The notes under the pieces were generated by a model. The model searched no databases and had not been told where the DNA came from. It worked only from the letters and a program-made list of their open reading frames with translations. The translations under genes and the position numbers were made by a program. Shown here one piece after another: positions 12,087 through 34,071 of a stretch of DNA of 64,000 nt. Location of the stretch: sequence record PQ758395; one strand, given 5' to 3'. The stretch's first letter is position 1; each line of letters begins with the position of its first letter. This stretch comes from Escherichia phage phita32.

Positions 12087-15000
12087 ATGCTTCCAATCCC
12101 TTTGCTAAAACTTGGTCGTCATTTCCTCGATAAGAGGGGTGGAATTAAGGAACTTGCTGTTCTGTCATACCCAATAGACAACAGTGATGGTACAAGCAAC
12201 ACAGTATCCTATGTAAATAGCTTAGCTATACTTTTTGATGATGGTCAGCTTAATATTACTGGCTATAATAAGTTCGGAGAGTGCCGCACCGGGGATCGTA
12301 GCCCTATAAACTACCCGAGCGAAACAGCCTGGAATGTTGATCATGTGTGGAGAGCAGACCGTGCGTTTGTGATCCGGACTTTTGATAATCAGTTTTTCTA
12401 CATCGGTTGCACTGCAGGTCTTATCGGATCCACTGCGGCAGGCGGTAATGATGTTTGCGTAAACGAGTGGACACCTCTTCCAGAACAGATTGTTAAAGGA
12501 TTGCACCTTGACACTCATCCAGAGCGCCTTATTGAGGTGATGGGCGGTATTAACAACACTATCTGGGTTATTGCAGAGGCAGAAGGCACTGGCATACTTA
12601 ACCTATATGGATCTGGTAACAACACCTACGGATCTTTGCATGTAGATAAAAATCAGCATGCAACCCCTGTAAAGATTGGTGAGACATCGGAAAATCCTGA
12701 AACAGGACCTTGGAAAAACCCAAGCATCAACTGCGAGGTGCATGACAACTCTGTTATTTTCGGTGGTCCTAGAGGTTTCTGGATTGCTGGATACGACTTT
12801 CTGAGAAATAACAGTAGAAACGACCTTGTTTGGCCTCCTGTGCAGATTACTCGTAACGATTTGAGGGGAATTCCTGCAGATGAGGAGTGGAAAGGGTTTA
12901 TGTGTGGTCCTAACGGGGCAATAATTGCCACACAGAGGATGCATAGACCCGATGACCAGCAGCTTGTTAACGTATTCTACGGGCAAGACGTCTGGGGAGA
13001 TGACACATGGCGTTCCTTAAATATCACCTACACCCATGAGGTGATAATGGCTCGTGGATACGGCACAAGTGGCATTTTCTTCAATAATGGCACTAAACAG
13101 TATCGTGGATTCTCTCGCAACTTGTGTAATGATATTGGTGCACAATCTGCAAACAATAACCCTAGGGCTAATTTTATCCACTATCAGGCTCTTGCTACAG
13201 CTAAATATGTTGAGCAACGCCTGCCAGTTAGCTGGACAGAGAGTGTTTATTTCCAAGGCATCCACAGGGAAGGTTTCTTAGGAACCTTTACTGTTGTTAA
13301 TGGCAAACTTTGGTGGTCAGGCATCCCAAGGGGAAGTTTTGCAGGCTCTAACAACCTGTTTGGCGGCAGACTTAATAGTCAGGGGTTCACAGAGGTTCCT
13401 GAGAATTGGTATAAAAATGTCCCGGTAGACAGTTGGGGTGTTGATGATATTTTCGACGTTAACGGTGTTAGCAGCGTTAGCAATATTTACATTGGTGACA
13501 CGGTCAAGATGAAATTGAAGCCTCAGCCAGAGGGGGCTACGTTCATTATTGACAAGATTGAACTGGTAAATGCTGCAGGCACGGTTGTTACAGATGCAAA
13601 TTACCAATTCTCCACCAACTGGAACCACGGTGGGGCCAACGAAGTTGTTGTTACTCAGTATAACAGGAATGTTAACAGACGTGGCCTGTACTCTGTAAAA
13701 ATAACCTATCATGACAAGCATGGCACAGGAAGAACTCACACGACAAGGACTTTGAACTGGAACACCATAGTTCCTGCGTATCCTTCTGACGGTAAGTGGC
13801 ATACCGTTGGTAGAAACAAGCAGTTCCATGTTAACGATACTGTGTACTTCGGGCTGAATGGGACTCAGCCTGCGGTAGAAGGGGATACATCGTATATGGT
13901 CCGACTCCACAGAATGGATGCTGGATCAGTCACCTATGATGTTACCCAAGAGATTTATGATCAGAGACGAAATACCTACAACAACTTGGTGCAGACACAG
14001 GCCGTATGGGAGTTCAACCCTAACGGCAGAGGTGGTAAAATGTTGCAGGTTAACGAGCAAAACGGAACGTCGTTGACTGTCCACGAACACCCAGACCCTT
14101 GGCCTGATCCTGGAAAACCTCACCCTGGTGCTCGTACACTGAAAATTGTCAGCCATGATGTAGGATATTTCGGAATACGCTGGGAAGCTACAGTAAGATA
14201 TGCCGACGGGACAACAAACAACATAGGGATTACTCTTGGTGGCACTAGTGAGGATAACTCACTGAAAATTGCCTGCACTCCTAGAGGCATCTCTATTGAC
14301 AATATGGATGTTGTTCGCAACGGTTACGGCGATGTGAATGTCAAAGTTACTCTTGGCGAACATCTTGGTGGGGAAAGGATAATCATGTATGCCTTTGATC
14401 ATGATCCACGCACCAATGGAACTTATGCAAATCAGGCATGGAGTTACCTGATAAATGCACCTGAGCAGAATACTAAAGAGTTCTACTATGGTATGAAGCG
14501 GGATGTGTGCAAGAAAACAGGAACACATGACCGGATTGCTATCTGCGTTAAAGATGAGCGCACAGCTTGGGATGAACCTGTTAACAGATGGTTCATAGGT
14601 ATTCCTACCAGAAGTGATAAGTATGTCGCAGAATATATTGTATGCATGGGCGGTACCAACCTGAACATGTGTTGGAACGAGGATGCAAACAAATACTCTG
14701 ATTATGACTATATGAGGGATTACTCTTGTAATCAGTGGTTTAACCAATCAACAGGATACCCTCCACGTCAGGCGAGAGTAAACCCTGCAATCTTCACAGA
14801 TACGCAGGTTTTCTTGACAAAACAGGCCAACGAGGTTCAGACCTTCAAGAATAAATACGATCCTAACAAGTGGTTCTACAACTGTTACGGCGCATTTTTC
14901 TGGGGACCTGGTGAGTTACCTGGTGGAGGATCTTGCTTGAATGAGGCAACTTACGCCAGTGACTACATCATGGGGCAGGTCAAGAAGTATAAGATAATCC

Positions 15001-16403
15001 CAGGTCCTGAGACTCTGGGCAATGCCGTTGACCCTTATATCATCATGACTGCACTGAGATCAAACATGGACGGGACATCCATGTCTATGCAAATTCCGGT
15101 AACAAACGGGTACAAACGTGTTGTGATGATCATTAAGTGCGACTTAATAGGTAAACAAGTTCTTGCAGAAAACGGGACATCCACGCATCCTTTTGAGATT
15201 GCTCTGCACTATCAGTTTGCTGACTCGCCTTTTGCAGGTGATAAGAGAATATCTGATACAGATGCACAGCGTTGTAAGAAAGTATTGTTGGGTGCAGGTT
15301 GGTGGTGGTATGAGTTTGATTTAACAGACAAATTCACCGACACATCTAAAGTTATAACAGGACTTCGTCTAGACCTTGGCGAGAACATGCACAAAGCTGT
15401 TTGTGATGGCACCTATGGTGACCCTACAATATACCTAAAATATATTTCTTTTGAGCATCCGGAAGATGTTGTCTACGGTCCAAAACTGAGATTGTTTGGC
15501 AGTTGGATTGCAAAAGATAGGGTAGGCATGGGTAAGAAGGTGAGAGGGTTCTTGGTTGATGCAGGAACAGAAGACATGCTGGTTAATGCAGTATGGCCTG
15601 AATTACCTGGGACTCAGTGGAACAACTCAGCCAAATCTATAAACTGGTTTAACATTCATAGGGCCATGTGGACCACTAACTGCTACTTGTGGAGAGAGCT
15701 TAACGATCAGGCCTTTGGCTTCAGTGATGGCAGGAGGATGGCGATCATTTGCTGGACAACGCTGCAAAGATGCTATGACCATGACTACGAGATTGGTGGT
15801 AGGGCATGGAAAAATATCAGGGACAGAATCATAACCAATTTTGCAGACGATAACGGTGGTGGAGCACATAACTTTGGCACAAGCCGACTTATCCATTTGA
15901 ATGGATCCTCAGCCTACAAGAAAGAAGGTTACTCCGGGTCCATGATCGAGTGGGGTCTGGTGAAAGATGCTCGCGTATTGATGGGCCAGCAACTTGCTGC
16001 CGCAATAGGCCCCAGCGCAGTGCAGTCGGTTAAACCAGCGTGGTTCGATATTCCATTGTGGTCACCCGGAACACCGGGAACTGCTGCAATCAACCCCACC
16101 ACTGGGGATCTAGAAATCTCCTGGGAGGACTTGAAGCAGGTCGGTGGTTGGGACAAAACAGGGTATCAGGTTCAGTGGTGGAGGGCTGATGGATCTTTAG
16201 CCGCTGATGAGTTTGTTAAGGACAATTTCTACACTATGTCCTCTGCAAAAGCACAGCAATTATTTGGTCAGGCCACTCCGTCAACGATCACCATGTCTAT
16301 GTGCTGTAAAGACAACAGGACTGGAGCTTTGGGGCCAAGGGTTGCTAAGGTTTTCTCAGGTATTAAATGGAATCTCCCTGTCCAAAGTATTTCATGGAAG
16401 TAA
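12087..16403 (+). CDS. Large tail fibre / host-interaction protein (1438 aa)
   Basis: Long ORF with GGAG RBS in the fibre cluster; ends with a single TAA that is in frame with the downstream ORF. Confidence 0.45.
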   Translation: MLPIPLLKLGRHFLDKRGGIKELAVLSYPIDNSDGTSNTVSYVNSLAILFDDGQLNITGYNKFGECRTGDRSPINYPSETAWNVDHVWRADRAFVIRTFDNQFFYIGCTAGLIGSTAAGGNDVCVNEWTPLPEQIVKGLHLDTHPERLIEVMGGINNTIWVIAEAEGTGILNLYGSGNNTYGSLHVDKNQHATPVKIGETSENPETGPWKNPSINCEVHDNSVIFGGPRGFWIAGYDFLRNNSRNDLVWPPVQITRNDLRGIPADEEWKGFMCGPNGAIIATQRMHRPDDQQLVNVFYGQDVWGDDTWRSLNITYTHEVIMARGYGTSGIFFNNGTKQYRGFSRNLCNDIGAQSANNNPRANFIHYQALATAKYVEQRLPVSWTESVYFQGIHREGFLGTFTVVNGKLWWSGIPRGSFAGSNNLFGGRLNSQGFTEVPENWYKNVPVDSWGVDDIFDVNGVSSVSNIYIGDTVKMKLKPQPEGATFIIDKIELVNAAGTVVTDANYQFSTNWNHGGANEVVVTQYNRNVNRRGLYSVKITYHDKHGTGRTHTTRTLNWNTIVPAYPSDGKWHTVGRNKQFHVNDTVYFGLNGTQPAVEGDTSYMVRLHRMDAGSVTYDVTQEIYDQRRNTYNNLVQTQAVWEFNPNGRGGKMLQVNEQNGTSLTVHEHPDPWPDPGKPHPGARTLKIVSHDVGYFGIRWEATVRYADGTTNNIGITLGGTSEDNSLKIACTPRGISIDNMDVVRNGYGDVNVKVTLGEHLGGERIIMYAFDHDPRTNGTYANQAWSYLINAPEQNTKEFYYGMKRDVCKKTGTHDRIAICVKDERTAWDEPVNRWFIGIPTRSDKYVAEYIVCMGGTNLNMCWNEDANKYSDYDYMRDYSCNQWFNQSTGYPPRQARVNPAIFTDTQVFLTKQANEVQTFKNKYDPNKWFYNCYGAFFWGPGELPGGGSCLNEATYASDYIMGQVKKYKIIPGPETLGNAVDPYIIMTALRSNMDGTSMSMQIPVTNGYKRVVMIIKCDLIGKQVLAENGTSTHPFEIALHYQFADSPFAGDKRISDTDAQRCKKVLLGAGWWWYEFDLTDKFTDTSKVITGLRLDLGENMHKAVCDGTYGDPTIYLKYISFEHPEDVVYGPKLRLFGSWIAKDRVGMGKKVRGFLVDAGTEDMLVNAVWPELPGTQWNNSAKSINWFNIHRAMWTTNCYLWRELNDQAFGFSDGRRMAIICWTTLQRCYDHDYEIGGRAWKNIRDRIITNFADDNGGGAHNFGTSRLIHLNGSSAYKKEGYSGSMIEWGLVKDARVLMGQQLAAAIGPSAVQSVKPAWFDIPLWSPGTPGTAAINPTTGDLEISWEDLKQVGGWDKTGYQVQWWRADGSLAADEFVKDNFYTMSSAKAQQLFGQATPSTITMSMCCKDNRTGALGPRVAKVFSGIKWNLPVQSISWK

Positions 16404-16508
16404 ATAGGTGATAACAAGCTGCTGGTTACCCCTGCCTGTCAGTTCAACGCAACTCTTAACGTTGATCCTGCTGTTGCGGCAAACTCAGCTAAAGCTTCTG
16501 ACTTCTCT

Positions 16509-17723
16509 GTGTCTAACACTGCTATGGCAGATGTGAGGAAGATTGACACACTGAACGCCAGAATTACCTGTAAAAACACTTATGGCACATTCCAGATCAT
16601 CAACAACTTCACAGATGCTGATTCTAAGGTAGTGAGGACAGCAAGCCAGACTCTAAGTTTAGGAACTCTGGCCTATGCGGCTCTGATCACTGAACAGTCG
16701 GCAACACTCCAAGGAGGCGGTGTAGGCAAGTCCATTACAACACCTGTGTGGAAGCCAAATGAGTGGGTTGTGTTTGATTTGACTGTGGACTTCTCCAGCG
16801 ATAATAACTGGACATGGGTAAGGAATTGCTTGTCACAACTGATGGGTGGTCCAAGCTCCGTTAGTGATAGCCACGACTCCACTGACCCGAGTGTGTTCCA
16901 GGTAGGTAAAACTCACCCAGAGACTGGAGAAACGTTGCCTGACAGGAAGTATGCTTTGGTTTGCATCTCTTACGGGAAGGCAGATGTCACCTTCTCAGGG
17001 ACACACACTTATAACGGAACCTACGACTTCTCAAGGAAGTATAGTCTCAAAGCAGGGAACATTATAGACGAGGTTGGTGTGTTGTATAATCCAGGTAACG
17101 GCATAGGGATTGTGGGTGGTAAACTGCAGATGCAGGAACCTTCTATTACCCCTTCCAATGTATCCGGGATTAGAAAGACTTGGGAAAGTAGTAATACCAA
17201 CATTGCAACAGTGGATGCTACCACAGGGCTGGTAACATTTAAAGCTACTGGGAATGTCACCATAAAGTTTGTAGTTACGGATGATGCAGGCCGCAAAACG
17301 TCTTCAACATCTTTCACTGTCAAACAGATGGCACCTCAGTGGAGAATGTGGGTAGGCAGGGCAACAGACGGGGCATATCCAAACCCGGCAGGGACTTCAG
17401 GTATGAAGACTTTCTCTGCAAGCAGACCAATGGAGTATGGCAGCGGTCCTAAAGTTGGGCAGATGGTATACTTTGGTGCGTATATCCCTGAAATTATAGG
17501 GCTTCCTAGAAATCAGATTCAATTACTGTTTGGATCTGGCGTTGACGAGCTTGCTACTTTCGGGTATAGCGACAACATAGATGCTGCAAGAAGTTCCGGA
17601 TGGGTGGGGTTCAGACTACAGCTGGCGGTAGAAGGTAGGGTCATGGGGTTCGGATCCATAGGTGCCATGCTTCCTGGTGATCAGCAGTATGATCTTGAAG
17701 CCTACGCAACTTTCTCTCGTTAA
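16509..17723 (+). CDS. Ig-like (Big_2-type) domain protein (404 aa); possibly a C-terminal extension of the upstream gene
   Basis: Segment IRKTWESSNTNIATVDATTGLVTFKATGNVTIKFVVTDDAGRKTSSTSFTV resembles bacterial Ig-like domains. Same frame as 12087..16403, with an open frame from 16404; no convincing RBS before the GTG at 16509 or the ATG at 16524. Confidence 0.4.
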   Translation: MSNTAMADVRKIDTLNARITCKNTYGTFQIINNFTDADSKVVRTASQTLSLGTLAYAALITEQSATLQGGGVGKSITTPVWKPNEWVVFDLTVDFSSDNNWTWVRNCLSQLMGGPSSVSDSHDSTDPSVFQVGKTHPETGETLPDRKYALVCISYGKADVTFSGTHTYNGTYDFSRKYSLKAGNIIDEVGVLYNPGNGIGIVGGKLQMQEPSITPSNVSGIRKTWESSNTNIATVDATTGLVTFKATGNVTIKFVVTDDAGRKTSSTSFTVKQMAPQWRMWVGRATDGAYPNPAGTSGMKTFSASRPMEYGSGPKVGQMVYFGAYIPEIIGLPRNQIQLLFGSGVDELATFGYSDNIDAARSSGWVGFRLQLAVEGRVMGFGSIGAMLPGDQQYDLEAYATFSR

Positions 17724-22263: not shown

Positions 22264-23724
22264 TTATTTAGCGTACTCGATTAATTCCACAGTTTTCCCA
22301 AAGCTAGGGATATAATTTTTATTATACCCTTCGGTGAGAACCCATAGAGTATCGTACTTTTTCCACTTGTTGTCAACAGCCTTTTGTTCAAAGTTATGCT
22401 CAAAGTATAGATCGGTCAGGACGATGACATCTTTTGCATTTGGTATGTTGGCATCCAGATACTCGAACACGCAAGCAGCTGTTGTGCCCCATGTTGAGTG
22501 GACCTCGTAGTTGATCATCTCATCTATGTTGCCGCGAGTGTATACTTTAACCTCTCCAACCTCAGTTGACCAACAGAACATTGTAACCTTAAACTCTTTA
22601 TACAGATTGCACAATCCGGTGATTTCATTGAACATTTTCTTTAAAGTTCTTTGAGAGATCGAGCCAGAAACGTCTAAAGCTACCACAATATCTATGGTGT
22701 TTTCCGGATTACGACCAGGAACAATAACGTGCTGGTTCTTGTTTATAGCCCCAACTTTTCGCATTGTGCTGGTCAAAGACCCAGATCGGCGACCAGGTTT
22801 TCTGTAGGTCAGTTCAGCCTTTCGTTTAGACAACATGCGTTGCTTAATGATGTCTATATAGTTGATTACAGGCTTACCCCTGTTCTTGACAAACTCACGC
22901 ACCGCCTCAGGGCAACGACCTCCGGAAGCTTGCATTGCTGCCTCCAGCATGTCGCCAGAGTCTTGCATGGCCTGATCTTTATCAGATTGGCTGATTACAG
23001 GTTGTGGCTGATCATACCCCATAGCCTTTCCAAGATCATCACTGGTGCCACCGTTCCCACTCATGTGATCATCTGTTTGTCGCTTATCCCCTTGAGAGTT
23101 CTCACCTTTACCGCTCTTACTTTTACCGTTATTCTGATCTCTTTGCTTATCAAGAACTGCATAGACGTTCTCAGCAATCCATCCATGAAACTTCATGTCG
23201 CAGTAGCAGCTGGCTAAGAAGCCAAAAGGCTTACCTTTTACGAACGTAGTGCTTTTCCCCTTCGGGAAGAAAACACAAGGAGGCTTGCTAAAGTCAACCA
23301 CAAGACCTGTGTTGATAACGTGATCACAAGCAATGTTGAACAGTTCCGGCTCAAAGCTTTTACCACGGACCAGGTGATCACAGATAATATGCCCCACCTC
23401 ATGTGACAGAAGAAAGGCCACCTCTTTCACAGATTTTGGGGAATAGAAAACCTCAGCCATCTCAAACTGCTTGTCAGTCAGAGATGCTTTAAGAATGGTT
23501 TTACGCTCATCTGCCAACCCCATAATGAACTCAGGGCTGTAGTAGATGCGTTTATGGTCTGTTGCCATAGTGGAGCACCATGTGTGGTTTTCTACGAACT
23601 GCAACCCTGACAACAGTGTGCCATAAAACGGCAGCTTTTCAAGAAGATACATGCGTGCTGCCTGCAGCATTCGCAAGGCGTCATCTTTTTGTGCGGCAAT
23701 GATTTCTGAACTTCTGCTATCCAT
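22264..23724 (-). CDS. VWA-domain protein with N-terminal HExxH metallopeptidase-like domain
   Basis: HEVGHIICDH zinc motif; VALDVSGSIS (VWA MIDAS-type DxSGS). Probable start is the ATG at 23724 (GGAG RBS) rather than the TTG at 23745, which lies inside a hairpin. Confidence 0.55.
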   Translation of the reverse strand: MDSRSSEIIAAQKDDALRMLQAARMYLLEKLPFYGTLLSGLQFVENHTWCSTMATDHKRIYYSPEFIMGLADERKTILKASLTDKQFEMAEVFYSPKSVKEVAFLLSHEVGHIICDHLVRGKSFEPELFNIACDHVINTGLVVDFSKPPCVFFPKGKSTTFVKGKPFGFLASCYCDMKFHGWIAENVYAVLDKQRDQNNGKSKSGKGENSQGDKRQTDDHMSGNGGTSDDLGKAMGYDQPQPVISQSDKDQAMQDSGDMLEAAMQASGGRCPEAVREFVKNRGKPVINYIDIIKQRMLSKRKAELTYRKPGRRSGSLTSTMRKVGAINKNQHVIVPGRNPENTIDIVVALDVSGSISQRTLKKMFNEITGLCNLYKEFKVTMFCWSTEVGEVKVYTRGNIDEMINYEVHSTWGTTAACVFEYLDANIPNAKDVIVLTDLYFEHNFEQKAVDNKWKKYDTLWVLTEGYNKNYIPSFGKTVELIEYAK

Positions 23725-23735
23725 TAAAACTCCAG

Positions 23736-23752
23736 AAGGGGCCAATGGCCCC
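23736..23752 (-). terminator. Intergenic hairpin (AGGGGCCAATGGCCCCT), partial terminator
   Basis: Perfect GC stem between two co-oriented minus-strand genes, followed on the minus strand by a T-containing tract. Confidence 0.35.
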
Positions 23753-23757
23753 TGTCA

Positions 23758-24747
23758 TTATTTAACGTGCTTGAAAATACCAGCCAACTCGGTCATTGTC
23801 ATGCGAGTGGTCTTCATAAGGTCTGTCATAGCCTTCTCCATAATTGGAGATACTACCATAAAGTTACCCTTGGTGAAACCTTTATTCCAGTCGGTCACTA
23901 ATAGTGGTTTAAGTCCGGCCCCGAGACGCTCACCAGTCAAAGCACAACATTTTCGGATGTATGTGCTCTTAAACTGGCTGAATGACAAGTCAACTTTCAT
24001 ACCTGCATCGTAGAACGTCTGGCAATAGAAAGTGTAAGCTTTGGCAATCTCAACATCGTCAGGCAGTGCAGGAACCTCTTCTGTGAGCTCTTCTTCGCCC
24101 CCTTGAGGCTCTTTTTCCTCTTCGTGATCCTGTTGCATCATTTCTTCAATCTCTTCTGTTACAGGCTCATTTACGATGTCAGAAATGTGCTTGTTGGCTC
24201 CACGATTAGCCATGAAGTTTTTAAAATCCCGCATTGGTGACATATCTTCCTCCCATTCTTCGTCAAAGAGTGCTAGTTTATCCTCTTCCGTTCCATATTG
24301 CAAGATGAAATCTTCAAAAGTGTAATCACCTTTCAATTTCTCCATACGCTCTTCGCTCAGGTGGAGCATCATCTGCTGGACAATTTTTCGATCAGTTTTG
24401 TCTTTAATCAAGACTGCGGTCTTTTTATCTACCAGACAGTCCTTTAGAGAGTTGCATCTCAATCCTACCACACAACAGTTATCAACCGCGTAAGGACCTT
24501 CATCATCTATCCGCTCTAGAGATGGGTAGAAAGGATTTCCCAGTCCGTTTTCATCTGTGTGCATGTCGAAAGGTATAAGGGTATAGTCGCATACCCCTTC
24601 TCCTAAAAGTTTTTTACCAAATAGGAGGTATTCTTCCCACGACAGGTTGAACTCTATATCTCGTTTCCGTGCATTATTCTGTTTGCGTCTATATTTTTTG
24701 AGCAGGCGCTCTAACTCTTCTGGTGTATAATATTTTTCAAGATTCAT
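23758..24747 (-). CDS. HNH-motif protein
   Basis: SLERIDDEGPYAVDNCCVVGLRCNSLK fits the HNH signature (..RID..xxY..DN....C..CN..K). The track start (TTG at 24813) overlaps a promoter, so the ATG at 24747 is preferred. Confidence 0.4.
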   Translation of the reverse strand: MNLEKYYTPEELERLLKKYRRKQNNARKRDIEFNLSWEEYLLFGKKLLGEGVCDYTLIPFDMHTDENGLGNPFYPSLERIDDEGPYAVDNCCVVGLRCNSLKDCLVDKKTAVLIKDKTDRKIVQQMMLHLSEERMEKLKGDYTFEDFILQYGTEEDKLALFDEEWEEDMSPMRDFKNFMANRGANKHISDIVNEPVTEEIEEMMQQDHEEEKEPQGGEEELTEEVPALPDDVEIAKAYTFYCQTFYDAGMKVDLSFSQFKSTYIRKCCALTGERLGAGLKPLLVTDWNKGFTKGNFMVVSPIMEKAMTDLMKTTRMTMTELAGIFKHVK

Positions 24748-24778
24748 GAGTTGTCTCTCGTGCTCTGTAAGTGAAGAA

Positions 24779-24807
24779 ATCGTATCAATTGTCTCAACAG
24801 ATGTCAA
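24779..24807 (-). promoter_or_regulatory. Sigma70-like promoter for the minus-strand operon
   Basis: TTGACA (minus strand) with about 17-nt spacer and TACGAT -10; back-to-back with the + strand promoter. Confidence 0.35.
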
Positions 24808-24820
24808 TATCAAAAACGTG

Positions 24821-28968: not shown

Positions 28969-28995
28969 CCCCCGCTTCGGCGGGGATTTTCTATT
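28969..28995 (+). terminator. Intrinsic terminator (CCCCGC-TTCG-GCGGGG + T-run)
   Basis: Same stem-loop type as at 2537; followed by ATTTTCTATTT. Confidence 0.6.
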
Positions 28996-29005
28996 TGGAG
29001 TTATT

Positions 29006-29506
29006 GTGAAAATTAAGATCTTTGCTATTATTTTGAGCGCATTTTTATCGCTGCCTGTTGTTGCAGCACCAAAGCAAAAAGTATATCATACTTGCAAGCC
29101 ATCGGATACTAAGGAAAACATTCTGGCATGCAATATCTACAGAGAAGCTAGAGGTGATGGCACGATGAGTATGCTGGCATCTGGGTTTGCCACACTGAAC
29201 AGGAAATCCCACCCTAAATACCCAGACACTATAAGAAAGATTGTCTACCAACCTAACCAGTTTTCGTGGACAAACCACGGCAAAACTTTTAAGGTGACAG
29301 AAAAAGATTCATGGGATCACGCTAAAAGTCTTGCAAAGATGCTTCTAAAGGTCTATAATAACAACCATGTTGCATACATGGCTATGGACATAACAGGTGG
29401 AGCAACACACTACCATACAACCAAAGTACGACCGAAATGGGCAAAAAAGATGCAGAGGACAGCTCAATTCGGGAGTCATATCTACTACAAGGAGCGCAAT
29501 AAATGA
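29006..29506 (+). CDS. Secreted cell-wall hydrolase, SleB/CwlJ-like (signal peptide)
   Basis: GTG start with GGAG RBS; N-terminal signal peptide (KIFAIILSAFLSLPVVAAP); motifs NIYREARGD..VYQPNQFSW..ATHYH characteristic of the SleB/Hydrolase_2 family. Confidence 0.55.
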   Translation: MKIKIFAIILSAFLSLPVVAAPKQKVYHTCKPSDTKENILACNIYREARGDGTMSMLASGFATLNRKSHPKYPDTIRKIVYQPNQFSWTNHGKTFKVTEKDSWDHAKSLAKMLLKVYNNNHVAYMAMDITGGATHYHTTKVRPKWAKKMQRTAQFGSHIYYKERNK

Positions 29507-31485
29507 TTGTAAACAGTAATGAAACTAAAGCAGTACTAACCGGAAATATGGAGGTCACCAGGGGCTCAATTTCTCTGAACAAGGAGACTTTTGGGCTAAT
29601 CATTAAAGGGATTTACGAAGATAAGGTGCTGGCAAGCTGCCGTGAACCAATCTTCAATGCTGTGGACTCCCATGTTGAGTCTGGACGGGGTGATGTACCG
29701 ATCATCATTCACTCTCCTACAGACCTTGAACCATACTTCTTTGTGCAGGACGTTGGATTAGGTATGTCAGAAGAGATGGTCCGCAACACTTTCATGAACC
29801 TCGGGGAGTCAACCAAGCGCAACAGCAACGCTCTGGTAGGTAATAAAGGTGTTGGTTCGAAGGCTCCGTTCAGCATGGTGGACACTTTCGATGTGATCAG
29901 TGTGCACAATGGTGTTGAAAGCACATATCTATTGTTCTTGGATCAGGGTATCCCAAACGTTACCAAGATCCGCGAGCGGAAGACTGAAGAGCACAATGGG
30001 GTAAAAGTTCAGTTCCATGTTAAGAAAGAGCATGTTCTGAAATATCGCACTGCTATTGCATCATGCCTACGCTATGCAAAGTTTCCGTTTACCGTTACCG
30101 ATCCTATGACCAATAAGATGCTGGAAGGTGACAAGGTTGAGGCGCAGTATCGCTACGAGAAAGATGGTTGGAAAATGACCATCCTAAAGGGTTATACCAG
30201 CTCTGACGAGAGTCGCGTGGTAATGGGACACCAACCTTACCGCTCTAAGTTTCTGGAAACATTGACAGACTACCCTGCAATCTGTGTAGAGATCCCTATC
30301 GGGGATTGCAATATTAACCCTGGGCGCGAATGGACCATAGAGGGTCACGACGATGGTGGATTCCAAGAGCGTCTGGAGGCTTTTGTCAAAGAGGGTATCC
30401 GTCTTCGTGGGGCAGAAGTTGTTGCGGAATTGGAAACAGCAAAAACATCCTCAGAAGCACGCGAGATGATGAAGAACAGTGGAGTGTTCGGGCACATCTT
30501 CGGCAAAAACTTTATGTGGAACCGTTGGGAAGAAACAGGACTTGGCGACTTAGGCGATTGTGAAATTTTCGCTGGCGGCTTAAATAAAGGCCGCATAGGC
30601 TATGCTCGTTACGGAAAGTCGGAGTTCTTACGAGGTGTATACCTTGTATTTAACGACGGGGACGGCAAATATAACCGAAATAAGTGTAACTACCTAAGTG
30701 AGATCACCGGACGCAACGTTTTCTATTGCCGGAACACGGATCTGGTGAAAGAGTTTAAAGAGGCGGCACACCATCCGTTCTTTGCAGATACGGTCAAATT
30801 GTTATCAGAGCTCCCTCGCCGACCTGTGAAGAAAGGTGAAACAAAAACTCATTATGAGCCAGGGTATTGGGTTAAAAAACTTGAGAAGGATGGTTACTTC
30901 CGTCGTGAACGTATTACTAAGGCAGAGTTCAAAAAGATTAAGCACTGCATTCCTTATGAGGGTGATATCCAACGTGGAAGTTGTTGGCTGGGACAGCTGA
31001 GTAACATCTACCAGCAAAATTATGACCGTGTGCGTGCGGCACTCCAGATTCCTGAAGGGGAAGACCTGTACCTGGTATCAGAATCCCGTCTGCTTTGGAC
31101 TGATCCTGATTGCCAGTATGTTACAGAGAAGAGTGTGGAACATTTGTTGAAAGAGGATGCTTGGAAATTCTTACTAACTCGCGCAGCAAATGAAACTTCA
31201 TATGACAGCCTGTATAGACAATTAGGGAAAATTATCCCCATGCAAGATTTTGGAAATTATCGACCACATTTCCACAAGTGGGAAGGTAACACCGCGTGGA
31301 AGCATAGTGAGCTAAATCATCGTGCCAAAATCTTAATCGCCAACCGAGTCAAGTGCGGGAAGGCCTATATTGCAAGATTGGAAAAGAAATATCCGCTTTT
31401 GAAGCATGTAGGCTTGAAATATTGGGACACTCCTGCTATGATTGAATACCGTGAACTGATTGACACAAAGAATAACACCAACTAA
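29503..31485 (+). CDS. GHKL-family ATPase (660 aa)
   Basis: N-box EPIFNAVDS, G1 box VQDVGLGMS, G2 box GNKGVGSKAPF in the order of Bergerat-fold ATPases (Hsp90/MutL/MORC-like). Confidence 0.5.
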   Translation: MIVNSNETKAVLTGNMEVTRGSISLNKETFGLIIKGIYEDKVLASCREPIFNAVDSHVESGRGDVPIIIHSPTDLEPYFFVQDVGLGMSEEMVRNTFMNLGESTKRNSNALVGNKGVGSKAPFSMVDTFDVISVHNGVESTYLLFLDQGIPNVTKIRERKTEEHNGVKVQFHVKKEHVLKYRTAIASCLRYAKFPFTVTDPMTNKMLEGDKVEAQYRYEKDGWKMTILKGYTSSDESRVVMGHQPYRSKFLETLTDYPAICVEIPIGDCNINPGREWTIEGHDDGGFQERLEAFVKEGIRLRGAEVVAELETAKTSSEAREMMKNSGVFGHIFGKNFMWNRWEETGLGDLGDCEIFAGGLNKGRIGYARYGKSEFLRGVYLVFNDGDGKYNRNKCNYLSEITGRNVFYCRNTDLVKEFKEAAHHPFFADTVKLLSELPRRPVKKGETKTHYEPGYWVKKLEKDGYFRRERITKAEFKKIKHCIPYEGDIQRGSCWLGQLSNIYQQNYDRVRAALQIPEGEDLYLVSESRLLWTDPDCQYVTEKSVEHLLKEDAWKFLLTRAANETSYDSLYRQLGKIIPMQDFGNYRPHFHKWEGNTAWKHSELNHRAKILIANRVKCGKAYIARLEKKYPLLKHVGLKYWDTPAMIEYRELIDTKNNTN

Positions 31486-31495
31486 GGAGACCAAG

Positions 31496-32701
31496 ATGAT
31501 TTTCATCTACGAACATTTCAAAACTCGTAAAGAAGCACGTGACCGCCGTGCAGAACTTGAGAAGAAGGGTTTCACATGTGCCATTGAGAAAGGTGATACA
31601 ACCTGGACACTGGCAGTTGGTGCCCCAGAGTTGTTCGATCCTGACCGTGACAGCGTCTGCTACACCCGTGAGGATTTTGAAACCCGCGAAGAGGCCCGTT
31701 TATTTCGATATGGGCTGGAAGATAACGGTAAGTACGCCATGATCTTAGACTTAGGCGAAGGTTCCGTTAAACGTTGGGGTGTGGTATACCCACTGTGCGT
31801 TGTTCACGGTGTGGGGTTCACTGGGGTAGCAATCAAGTCAGAAGAACCTTCAGTAGAAGTCAAAGATCCGGTGCTGCAGGTAGTAAGCAGTGTGTCTCAA
31901 CAACAGACTCGAAGCATAGAGCCTTTAGTAGTTATTTGTGGAGAACTTCTCCAGATCACCTGCAACGAAGGCATTTTTGAAATTCGCCGCAGCGAAAGTG
32001 AGGAAGTTTACCAGAAAGTCTTCGACCATATCTCTGTTCAGGAATATGACGAGGCAATTGGTGAAATCCTTGTCTGGTTGGAACGCAAGAATGAGTTCAC
32101 TACACTTGCAGACAACCTGATTATGAAAGATGGTAAGCTCTATTACTACGGTGTAGAGATGCAATCTACCATTGCAAAGAAAATTGAGGAAGATTATGTA
32201 GATGGAACACTGGACGACCGATATGTTAAATTCCTTGTCCGTCTGCTACGCAACCCGTCTGCAAAATCTGTGAACATGCTCTACGATTTCATGCAGGCTA
32301 ATGACATCCAGGTTGCAGAAGATGGTCGAATCATTTGCTATAAGGGGGTTCAGTTTAACGGAAGCAAGTGGGTGGATTGGCACAGCGGTAAAGTTCCACA
32401 ATACCAGGGTGCTTTTGTATCCATGCCTCGTAACTTTGTAGAAGATGATCCGGAAGCTGCGTGTTCTTATGGCCTGCACTGCGCCAGCAAAGAGTATGCA
32501 GCGGGCTATGGCACCGTAATGATGGTTATGGTTGACCCTGCGGATGTGGTTAGTGTGCCATACCAACACAACAGTGCTAAGTGCCGTGCATGCCGCTACG
32601 AAATCGTAGCAGCACCGGAATCACGCAAAGATGGCGATCCGATTGAATACGTAGTTGATCGTGACGGTAACACTATCGACATTCTTTACGAGGAGGCGTA
32701 A
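31496..32701 (+). CDS. Hypothetical protein (about 401 aa)
   Basis: ATG at 31496 with AAGGAGA RBS right after the upstream stop; the track start at 31460 overlaps the upstream gene. Confidence 0.4.
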   Translation: MIFIYEHFKTRKEARDRRAELEKKGFTCAIEKGDTTWTLAVGAPELFDPDRDSVCYTREDFETREEARLFRYGLEDNGKYAMILDLGEGSVKRWGVVYPLCVVHGVGFTGVAIKSEEPSVEVKDPVLQVVSSVSQQQTRSIEPLVVICGELLQITCNEGIFEIRRSESEEVYQKVFDHISVQEYDEAIGEILVWLERKNEFTTLADNLIMKDGKLYYYGVEMQSTIAKKIEEDYVDGTLDDRYVKFLVRLLRNPSAKSVNMLYDFMQANDIQVAEDGRIICYKGVQFNGSKWVDWHSGKVPQYQGAFVSMPRNFVEDDPEAACSYGLHCASKEYAAGYGTVMMVMVDPADVVSVPYQHNSAKCRACRYEIVAAPESRKDGDPIEYVVDRDGNTIDILYEEA

Positions 32702-34071
32702 TGGAAAAGGGGCAGTATGATGTAGGCACAGATGCTGCCCTCGTTGCAATCATGAGCGGTGAGAATGTCTTCGTTTCAGGACCCGCAGGTTGTGGGAAGA
32801 CGTACCTCATCAACATGATCCAGTCAATGTATGGAGACTCTTGCATAACGGTTGCCCCGACAGGGGTAGCCGCTTTAAACGTTAATGGAGCAACAGCACA
32901 CCGAACCTTCGATCTTGCAGCAGGTGTGAGCATGGAGTCAGACTGGACCGCAATAAGGGCAAAAACAGCAAAGCCTTTGAAGAGCAAGGCATTTACCATC
33001 TTAATTATCGATGAAATCTCTATGATCCGTGCTGATAAGTTTATAGAGATGGATAGGAAACTCCGCTTCCTTCGAAAAAATGACAAACCTTTCGGAGGCA
33101 TACAGGTCATATTGTTTGGCGATTTTTACCAGGCACCTCCTGTTGTCTCTTCTATGGAGAAGGAAGCCTACTTCAACTTCTACCATACGGACTTGTGTTG
33201 CTATACCGAATCTTGGAAAGAGCTTGACCTCCACAACATAGCCCTAATAGATCAGTTCCGACAGGAGTCTATTCGATTTGCCACAATGCTTAACTGTGTT
33301 CGTGAGGGTCGTCGCATAAAAGAGGTTGTAGCAGAGCTTAATGCTCACTGTTACAAAGGTGGTGTACCAACAGACGCTCTCACAATTTGCGCCACCAACA
33401 AACAAGCAGAGGAAGTGAACAGAAGGTTCTATGATGCCATCAACGCCCCAGAGAAGGTATACACTGGTGAAATGAAGGGTAAGTTTCCCTCCACCCTGCC
33501 AGTTGAGCAGGAGATGAAGTTGAAAATTGGCATGAAAGTTATGATAACCGCCAATGATGTTGACCCGACGCACAAAGTACCTTATTATGTTAACGGAACA
33601 CGTGCCACAATTGTTAAATTTAAGAACAAGGCAGTGGTGGTAGAGCTTGAAGATGGAACACAGGTTGACATAGAGCAGAGGTTGTGGGAGAATAACGAGT
33701 ATAAGCCCTCTCAGAGATACAACATTGCAGAAAGGAAGATGGAGAAGTTTATAGAGAGGGTAGTGATTGGGTCATACAAGCAACTTCCTCTGAAATCTGG
33801 GTATGCCGTAACATCTCATAAAAGTCAAGGACTTACGCTAGATTGTTACAACCTAGACCTTGGAAAGAACGGAGCTTTCTCTCCTGGGATGACGTATGTT
33901 GCTTTGAGTCGAGTTAAGACAATACAAGGAATAAACTTGTTGCGTCCACTAAGAGAAGTTGACATTATTGTTGACCCGCGAGTCGTAGAGTTTTACAATA
34001 CAACATTCCCTGACTTAGACAAAATTGTCAGGAAAGATTTTGAAACCAGAGCAGAAGAGGGGGACGTATGA
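32701..34071 (+). CDS. Superfamily-1 DNA helicase (Pif1/RecD/Dda-like)
   Basis: Walker A SGPAGCGKT; Walker B ILIIDEISM; C-terminal YAVTSHKSQGLTLD (SF1 motif VI). Confidence 0.6.
   Translation: MEKGQYDVGTDAALVAIMSGENVFVSGPAGCGKTYLINMIQSMYGDSCITVAPTGVAALNVNGATAHRTFDLAAGVSMESDWTAIRAKTAKPLKSKAFTILIIDEISMIRADKFIEMDRKLRFLRKNDKPFGGIQVILFGDFYQAPPVVSSMEKEAYFNFYHTDLCCYTESWKELDLHNIALIDQFRQESIRFATMLNCVREGRRIKEVVAELNAHCYKGGVPTDALTICATNKQAEEVNRRFYDAINAPEKVYTGEMKGKFPSTLPVEQEMKLKIGMKVMITANDVDPTHKVPYYVNGTRATIVKFKNKAVVVELEDGTQVDIEQRLWENNEYKPSQRYNIAERKMEKFIERVVIGSYKQLPLKSGYAVTSHKSQGLTLDCYNLDLGKNGAFSPGMTYVALSRVKTIQGINLLRPLREVDIIVDPRVVEFYNTTFPDLDKIVRKDFETRAEEGDV

Follow-up and report, generated by a model that had tools for sequence, protein, structure and literature searches.

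What does a phage gain from a GHKL (Bergerat-fold) ATPase encoded immediately ahead of a second gene, within its replication region? The question is raised by positions 29503-32701 of the window, as we call the whole 64,000-nucleotide stretch of Escherichia phage phita32 DNA that was analysed (record PQ758395). The initial annotation had described there the ATPase and a partner of unknown function, a pair that could have a novel DNA-manipulating or anti-defence activity. Judged from profile and sequence comparisons, the pair is rIIA and rIIB, the orthologues of the T4 genes. Its novelty is lost: the names rIIA and rIIB already stand at this position in most of the listed GenBank rV5-like records, and proteins about 99% identical to these two are in GenBank and have been tested.

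Organisation of the rIIA-rIIB locus

The window belongs to a Vequintavirus, an rV5-like E. coli myophage; megablast matched 120 phage records, with vB_Eco_Alma at the top (98.4% DNA identity). Both ORFs are present as originally delimited, on the plus strand and with ATG starts. The rIIA gene (29503..31485) encodes a protein of 660 aa (75.8 kDa, pI 8.4) and the rIIB gene (31496..32701) a protein of 401 aa (45.7 kDa, pI 4.8). Chance does not account for two ORFs of such length that are kept in over 100 phage genomes. Each is preceded on the same strand by a ribosome-binding site, AAGGAG, read from the sequence at 29489..29494 for rIIA and at 31484..31489 for rIIB. The latter overlaps the TAA stop codon of rIIA (31483-31485) and lies 6 nt 5' of the ATG at 31496, the spacer between the two genes being 10 nt. 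Translational coupling from rIIA to rIIB fits this geometry and is plausible.

Upstream, the rIIA start codon (29503) shares an ATGA with the TGA stop codon of a gene for a SleB-like hydrolase. Downstream, the SF1 helicase gene that had been noticed after the second ORF is found at 32701..34071 on the plus strand, its start overlapping the rIIB stop by 1 nt; the product is Dda/Pif1-like (Pfam PIF1, E 1.1e-32; phrog_325 'Dda-like helicase', E 7.4e-112). The order rIIA-rIIB-PIF1 helicase is kept even where the phage RIIB is only 35-48% identical, and the succession of rIIA and rIIB is also seen in related phages. The helicase is a conserved downstream neighbour, and any part of it in rII function would be hypothetical. 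The surroundings are those of an early/replication region, with a MoxR-like ATPase, methyltransferases, a primase-helicase and a DNA polymerase. A consensus scan pointed to a terminator-like site (a GC-rich hairpin and a T-run) at 28970..28985 on the plus strand, upstream of the hydrolase-rIIA-rIIB-helicase string, and the record of phage EdH4 annotates the equivalent site as a putative terminator. The gene neighbourhood, including this hairpin, is identical in EdH4 and other Vequintavirus genomes. For promoters, the consensus scan gave 24 sites where 22.1 +/- 4.1 are expected by chance, and none is claimed. In T4 the two genes come in the same order, rIIA then rIIB, on one strand and close together as here; the neighbours differ, being rIIA.1/gene 60 and denB.1 in T4, and the SleB-like hydrolase and Dda-like helicase genes in the window.

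Family membership and architecture of RIIA and RIIB

Profile and structure-prediction searches had been proposed for the C-terminal part of the ATPase and for its partner. These searches identified the partner as RIIB and placed full-length RIIA in phrog_612 'RIIA' (E 7.6e-125), residues 1-657 of 660 aligning with profile positions 1-723 of 725, while the C-terminal half of RIIA matched no Pfam family. The same phrog_612 is the top PHROG of T4 RIIA (E 9e-250). In BLASTP, the likeness to T4 RIIA is limited to the N-terminal 198 aa (28% identity, E 3e-21), and the C-terminal halves of the two proteins, which are 660 aa long here and 725 aa in T4, are related at the profile level only.

The GHKL ATP-binding domain, which is already in the literature for RIIA (PMC7824862), extends over about aa 26-190 (29578..30072). 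As had been noticed from the sequence, it contains an intact N-box (E48-x3-N52-x2-D55, 29644-29667), G1 motif (D83-x-G-x-G87, 29749-29763) and G2 motif (G113-x2-G-x-G118, 29839-29856), each occurring once. Their residues are invariant across 25 homologues, the motifs of the N-terminal GHKL domain of T4 RIIA are identical, and the protein scores 34.9 bits against Pfam HATPase_c_3 (cut-off 25). A probable second, 'transducer-like' domain follows at about aa 191-330 (30073..30489), with an approximate boundary. The C-terminal half (about aa 330-660, 30490..31482) varies between lineages and has no BLASTP similarity to T4 RIIA; its predicted structure is confident, with pLDDT values mostly of 83-95.

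Over its first 250-330 aa, RIIA is closest in fold to TRAP1, ParE, the T6 topoisomerase II ATPase, MORC and MutL-N, yet the identity with such GHL/MORC-type ATPases (GyrB/ParE, T6 topoisomerase II ATPase, MutL, Hsp90/TRAP1, MORC2/3) is only 9-15%. Unlike them, RIIA is devoid of Toprim, MutL C-terminal, Hsp90 C-terminal dimerisation, CW and coiled-coil domains. The absence of topoisomerase or MutL partner domains had already been noticed from the sequence, and neither Toprim, MutL_C nor the Hsp90 middle and C-terminal domains are among the Pfam and NCBIfam matches of RIIA. The NCBIfam HSP90 model gives 18.1 bits against a cut-off of 455, and no MutL or MORC family is matched in Pfam or NCBIfam. 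We rejected a type IIA topoisomerase subunit (GyrB/ParE/T4 gp39): the fold fits, but Toprim is absent, and RIIB stands where a GyrA-like partner would be expected. Homology to a phage topoisomerase II subunit or to a structural protein, which the initial annotation had named as the result that would overturn it, was not found; its novelty gave way to a different known family. Sequence searches of the PDB returned nothing significant for either protein, the best E for RIIA being 0.097.

RIIB was identified through PHROGs, BLASTP with T4 RIIB and precomputed Pfam labels. It matches phrog_609 'RIIB' (E 1.8e-60), which is also the top PHROG of T4 RIIB; this profile, of 1055 positions, matches both proteins of the window, RIIA and RIIB. 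A conserved core domain of ~230 aa (about aa 142-375, 31919..32620) aligns with T4 RIIB at 36% identity over 204 aa (E 1e-37). PF26926 (Phage_T4_rIIB) is precomputed on all listed RIIB homologues, including the 97%-identical cluster, and the assignment of the window protein to this family is read from these labels of its homologues. All 31 significant matches of the RIIB model in a BFVD fold search are RIIB-type or unnamed phage proteins, one of them labelled 'Transposase', and no other protein family is found among them. Direct searches of RIIB gave sub-threshold SPOR and CM1 matches in Pfam and none in NCBIfam. With PADLOC both proteins returned noise only, so neither resembles a known defence-system component.

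Outside the core, the two RIIB proteins are built differently. T4 RIIB (312 aa) has an HTH-like N-terminus, with weak Pfam matches to HTH_7, HTH_28 and Sigma70_r4, whereas the window protein (401 aa) has two repeats followed by a disordered linker and no HTH family match in Pfam. The repeats are tandem beta-alpha-beta-beta modules of ~45 aa (aa 3-42 and 56-99, 31496..31795) that share an invariant signature, F-x-[ST]-R-x-E-A-R ... R-W. The linker (aa 101-141, 31796..31918) is poorly conserved, varies in length and sequence in the alignment and has a pLDDT below 50. The rIIB family comprises 8015 clusters at 50% identity, and the flanks of the core vary widely across it. The T4-type HTH-like N-terminus is probably not family-defining, and a DNA-binding step derived from T4 may not carry over to a RIIB that does without it. 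The SPOR (PF05036) signal in the repeats lies below the Pfam gathering threshold, and the periplasmic location that would go with it was not indicated either. A candidate membrane segment at aa 95-113 (Kyte-Doolittle 1.69) was rejected, being not conserved and situated in the low-confidence linker; neither a signal peptide nor a conserved membrane segment was found in RIIB.

Probable counter-defence role and competing readings

Functional information comes from phage EdH4, whose RIIA is identical to that of the window at 650 of 658 positions (99%, 8 substitutions) and whose RIIB is identical at 397 of 401 (99%, 4 substitutions). When either EdH4 gene was knocked down by CRISPRi-ART, the phage plated less well on E. 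coli that expressed RexAB and as before on hosts without Rex, as stated in a text summary that covers five phages together rather than in plating values for EdH4 itself (PMC11879866). The Rex-dependent phenotype of the EdH4 pair is the same as that of T4 rII, and T4 transposon data agree with such a role for rII (bioRxiv 10.1101/2025.11.20.689424). Taken together with the orthology to T4, the intact GHKL motifs, the RIIB core and the linkage of the two genes, the Rex phenotype of this 99%-identical pair leads us to propose that rIIA-rIIB is very probably a conditionally required counter-defence module, dispensable on ordinary hosts and needed on cells that carry RexAB, the abortive infection system of lambda-type prophages. 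Of the two activities first envisaged, anti-defence was therefore right in kind, on the strength of that summary of EdH4 against RexAB.

The other, a DNA-manipulating activity, would make RIIA a new topoisomerase-, MutL- or MORC-like GHKL enzyme that works on DNA, its partner being an uncharacterised component of the replication machinery. One could invoke here the GHKL-plus-transducer-like fold, nearest to TRAP1, ParE, the T6 topoisomerase II ATPase, MORC and MutL-N, the location of the genes in a replication region just upstream of a Dda/Pif1 helicase, in an order kept in distant relatives, and the HTH-like N-terminus of T4 RIIB. However, the membership of both proteins in named, long-known families largely refutes this reading, Toprim, GyrA-like and MutL_C domains are absent in Pfam and NCBIfam, and the reported lack of any EdH4 knockdown effect on Rex-free hosts argues that rII is not a core replication function (PMC11879866, text summary). 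We consider such an enzyme extremely improbable.

The pair could also consist of lysis-timing proteins that mainly set the time of lysis, perhaps with the SleB-like cell-wall hydrolase, as the label 'RIIA/RIIB lysis inhibitor' implies. The PHROG category is indeed 'lysis', and the r (rapid lysis) plaque phenotype of classical T4 genetics speaks in favour of it. So do the ATGA overlap of the hydrolase and rIIA genes, the presence of the hydrolase upstream of rIIA in Klebsiella-phage relatives too, and the sub-threshold signal for SPOR, a peptidoglycan-binding fold, at the RIIB N-terminus. On the other hand, a further related lineage does not have the hydrolase at the equivalent place, so we keep the link with it as a weak rival only; with neither a signal peptide nor a conserved membrane segment, RIIB is unlikely to have a periplasmic peptidoglycan target; and knockdown is summarised as giving no defect on Rex-free hosts (PMC11879866). 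Lysis timing as the main role is very unlikely. A last possibility would add to the RexAB role rather than exclude it: besides RexAB, further systems could be targets of Vequintavirus rII, or could sense it. RIIB was recently found to trigger bacterial CARD/gasdermin immunity, the RIIB of T6 alone activating the Lysobacter system and escape mutants mapping to rIIB (PMC10312443). Orthologues of RIIA/RIIB in Bas63 have been implicated against QatABCD (PMC11482910), in Bas37 the orthologues had an effect on fitness when clinical isolates were the hosts (bioRxiv 10.1101/2025.11.20.689424), and a family of 8015 clusters would be spread much more widely than lambda Rex is known to be. All these data come from phages outside Vequintavirus, and the window itself is silent on the matter; we regard this broader role as possible, though doubtful for now.

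Proposed mechanism and significance

How the counter-defence module would work is described as 'poorly understood', T4 included (PMC8594841; PMC11879866). We propose that RIIA could be an ATP-driven dimerising clamp or switch, as in gyrase/Hsp90/MutL/MORC-type GHKL proteins, and that it would act in complex with RIIB. Physical coupling of the two is suggested by a natural fusion: the RB43 'RIIA-RIIB membrane-associated' protein (1049 aa) joins a RIIA-type N-terminal region to a RIIB-type C-terminal core and matches the RIIB model of the window with an E of 1e-16 (BFVD). What is one polypeptide in RB43 is split in the window into two separate, closely spaced genes. The match of phrog_609 to both window proteins likewise speaks for coupling. 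The complex would either prevent RexA from activating RexB, the membrane channel, or neutralise the depolarisation that results, and infection would thereby escape abortion. We favour an action upstream of RexB, at the trigger or at RexA activation, which may be right about as readily as wrong, over direct membrane protection, which is possible but would be our second choice; the evidence gathered is neutral between them.

A more speculative thought concerns the N-terminus of the Vequintavirus-type RIIB, in which SPOR/RNP-like modules would have replaced the T4 HTH-like region. These modules could form an alternative 'head' giving a different target or sensor specificity, such as an envelope or nucleic-acid ligand, or directed at defence systems other than RexAB. 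We think this improbable; if it were true, the N-terminus of RIIB would be an exchangeable domain that sets specificity.

The rII genes are Benzer's classic T4 locus, to which we owe fine-structure genetics and the working out of the triplet code. Almost 70 years later, the way in which RIIA and RIIB defeat RexAB is still a live problem. The window adds neither a new member nor a new variant to the rII family. Its only use is as a further case of the rV5-type architecture, in which RIIA is of the GHKL-plus-transducer-like kind and RIIB has repeat modules in place of the HTH; the comparison of this architecture with that of T4 could guide domain-swap or structural work on the mechanism.

Identity of the gene pair

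We analyzed the two adjacent genes located at 29503-32701, whose second product had been described in the initial annotation as an uncharacterised partner of a GHKL ATPase. This partner is RIIB. The 401-aa protein matches the RIIB profile PHROG 609 (E 1.8e-60), and the 660-aa protein matches PHROG 612 (RIIA) along its entire length (E 7.6e-125), the same two profiles being the top hits of T4 RIIB and RIIA. Direct BLASTP comparison gave 28% identity between T4 RIIA (from GenBank AF158101) and the N-terminal 198 residues of the 660-aa protein (E 3e-21), and 36% identity between T4 RIIB and 204 residues of the C-terminal core of the 401-aa protein (E 1e-37). In addition, PF26926, named Phage_T4_rIIB by a second tool, is precomputed on all homologues of the 401-aa protein in a collection of 5.8 billion proteins. 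The direct Pfam scan returned only sub-threshold noise for RIIB because this family is absent from the Pfam copy that was scanned.

The region 29503-32701 was also compared by megablast with GenBank phages. It matched 120 records, 85 of them with at least 80% query coverage, all rV5-like and belonging to the genus Vequintavirus, the closest being Escherichia phage vB_Eco_Alma (98.4% identity); most of the listed GenBank records already name the two genes rIIA and rIIB, and a few label them hypothetical. The pair had been thought to be possibly novel, a proposal that does not hold: it is already known through its family, its annotation in Vequintavirus and the function tested experimentally in a 99%-identical orthologue. 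We also observed that 16 unannotated records named 'Campylobacter phage', with Campylobacter jejuni as host, are about 97-98% identical to the window (for example MG065635 (C12), MG065654 (C15) and MG065666 (A12a), compared with 29503-32701 and 16000-17000). They are probably mislabelled, or derive from contaminating coliphages.

Compared by Foldseek with predicted viral structures, the RIIB model gave 31 significant matches from myoviruses, N4-like podoviruses and others, all of them to RIIB-type proteins or to phage proteins without a name (one carries the label 'Transposase'), and no protein family besides RIIB was found among them. Among 1.84 billion cluster representatives, searching with a profile recovered 8015 members at E <= 0.001. 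The rIIA/rIIB pair thus ranks with the most frequent accessory gene pairs found in large virulent phages. One metagenomic protein, P0005 (498 aa, ENA), joins TPR repeats to a C-terminal segment 95% identical to the window RIIB; the protein lies on a contig of 3.3 kb and most likely reflects chimeric assembly, not a real fusion.

Genomic context

Both genes lie on the plus strand and are uninterrupted on translation. The rIIA ORF (29503-31485, 660 aa) starts with an ATG overlapping the TGA of the upstream gene (ATGA), and the rIIB ORF (31496-32701, 401 aa) starts 10 nt after it, with an AAGGAG at 31484-31489 that overlaps the rIIA TAA stop (31483-31485). The next gene, a Dda-like helicase of the PIF1/Dda-type SF1 group (32701-34071, plus strand), begins on the final base of the rIIB stop. 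The anatomy previously reported, namely the ORFs, the ribosome-binding site geometry, the GHKL motifs and the adjacent SF1 helicase, was recovered in every particular save translational coupling, which the gene spacing suggests.

A terminator-like hairpin (28970-28985), also annotated in the record of the Vequintavirus phage EdH4, precedes the plus-strand string, which runs in the order SleB-like cell-wall hydrolase, rIIA, rIIB and helicase. Farther downstream are found small ORFs, DNA methyltransferases (so labelled after the annotation of the related phage nimi), a primase-helicase and a DNA polymerase. The order rIIA-rIIB-PIF1 helicase is kept at loci where RIIB identity is only 35-48% (L006, L007 and L008), the helicase of the L006 contig having 760 aa versus about 435-460 aa. 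We know of no functional connection of the helicase with rII. The SleB/CwlJ-type hydrolase (29006-29506; Pfam Hydrolase_2, E 1.5e-18) lies in the early/replication region, where a peptidoglycan hydrolase is unusual; Klebsiella-phage relatives also carry it ahead of rIIA, and it is absent from the other lineage compared.

Elsewhere in the window, the lateral tail-fibre gene 'with intimin/Ig-like domain' (12087-17723) is interrupted, giving ORFs of 1438 aa and, in the same frame, 404 aa, because an ochre TAA at 16401-16403 replaces the CAA (Gln) of phage EduardKellenberger through a single C-to-T change. The latter phage has one 1875-aa CDS, and PHROG 15684 is one profile of 1878 positions. This TAA could be a genuine truncating mutation, acquired for instance through host-range adaptation or during passage in the laboratory, or it could reflect an error in sequencing. 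Two adjacent minus-strand genes (22264-24813; 493 and 351 aa) coincide with the only negative GC skew of the window (18-24 kb). They are called 'anti-sigma factor' in related GenBank records, their best PHROG label is 'HNH endonuclease' (E 8e-123 and 8e-112) and a weaker PHROG match is 'decoy of host sigma70'; these labels disagree. ARAGORN detected no tRNA genes over 1-64000.

Anatomy of RIIA and RIIB

RIIA contains one copy of each GHKL motif (E48xxxN52xxD55, D83xGxG87 and G113xxGxG118) and scores 34.9 bits with Pfam HATPase_c_3 (gathering score 25). The motif residues are unchanged in 25 of 25 homologues, down to 20% identity, which points to a functional ATP site. AlphaFold2 modelled RIIA with confidence (mean pLDDT 83.9), and since the fold alignments of this model to GHKL ATPases span 250-330 residues, the module probably combines a Bergerat ATP-binding domain with another one of transducer-like type, a layout shared with the gyrase/Hsp90/MutL/MORC branch. 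The features that define topoisomerase II ATPase subunits, MutL, Hsp90 or MORC beyond the shared ATPase fold are absent from the two proteins, and the lack of topoisomerase or MutL partner domains, noticed at the outset, stands; all testable defining features of the RIIA and RIIB families are present. Residues ~330-660 of RIIA are modelled with good quality, and this half gave no family in the Pfam scan and no similarity to T4 RIIA by BLASTP. Neither RIIA nor RIIB displays a convincing transmembrane segment.

The RIIB model is of moderate quality (mean pLDDT 71.6) and comprises three parts: two tandem beta-alpha-beta-beta modules of ~45 residues (aa 3-42 and 56-99), a disordered, non-conserved linker (aa 101-141) and the conserved core (about aa 142-375), to which T4 RIIB and the majority of family members align. 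Both modules share the invariant signature F-x-[ST]-R-x-E-A-R ... R-W, and the internal repeat alignment scores 45 versus 20.4 +/- 4.4 in shuffles. A SPOR domain was considered for these repeats and rejected, being below threshold in both sequence and fold. Only at its N-terminus is Vequintavirus RIIB of a different kind than the T4 model protein: T4 RIIB has weak helix-turn-helix matches there, whereas the Pfam scan found none in the window RIIB. That this repeat-type N-terminus is a swappable specificity head seems very improbable.

Probable role against RexAB

Lambda RexAB excludes T4 rII mutants; RexB sits in the inner membrane with four helices and is contacted by RexA, which is cytoplasmic and binds DNA, and the two proteins jointly abort infection via membrane depolarisation (PMC11077077; bioRxiv 10.1101/2025.11.20.689424). 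According to Adler et al. (Nat Microbiol 2025, PMC11879866), knockdown of RIIA or RIIB in T4, MM02, EdH4, SUSP1 and N4 lowered plating on RexAB-expressing cells and left plating on Rex-free E. coli unaffected. EdH4 RIIA and RIIB are identical to the window proteins at 650 of 658 and 397 of 401 positions, and owing to this near-identity the Rex-dependent function can be transferred to the pair with high confidence. The anti-defence role guessed initially was thus right.

We propose that RIIA would act as an ATP-dependent dimerising clamp or switch in complex with RIIB, and that this complex would block the RexA-dependent opening of RexB. Escherichia phage RB43 encodes a natural RIIA-RIIB fusion of 1049 aa (BFVD entry Q56C47), which explains why the PHROG 609 profile (1055 positions) aligns with the RIIB core of the window and also with the N-terminus of its RIIA (aa 26-183), a Rosetta-stone argument for RIIA and RIIB as one unit. 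The chances are about even that rII acts upstream of RexB; protection at the membrane appears less likely.

The role of rII may be broader, as orthologues have been implicated against QatABCD (PMC11482910) and in fitness on clinical isolates (bioRxiv 10.1101/2025.11.20.689424). RIIB may, in addition, put the phage at a disadvantage: T6 RIIB alone activates a CARD/gasdermin system of bacteria (PMC10312443).
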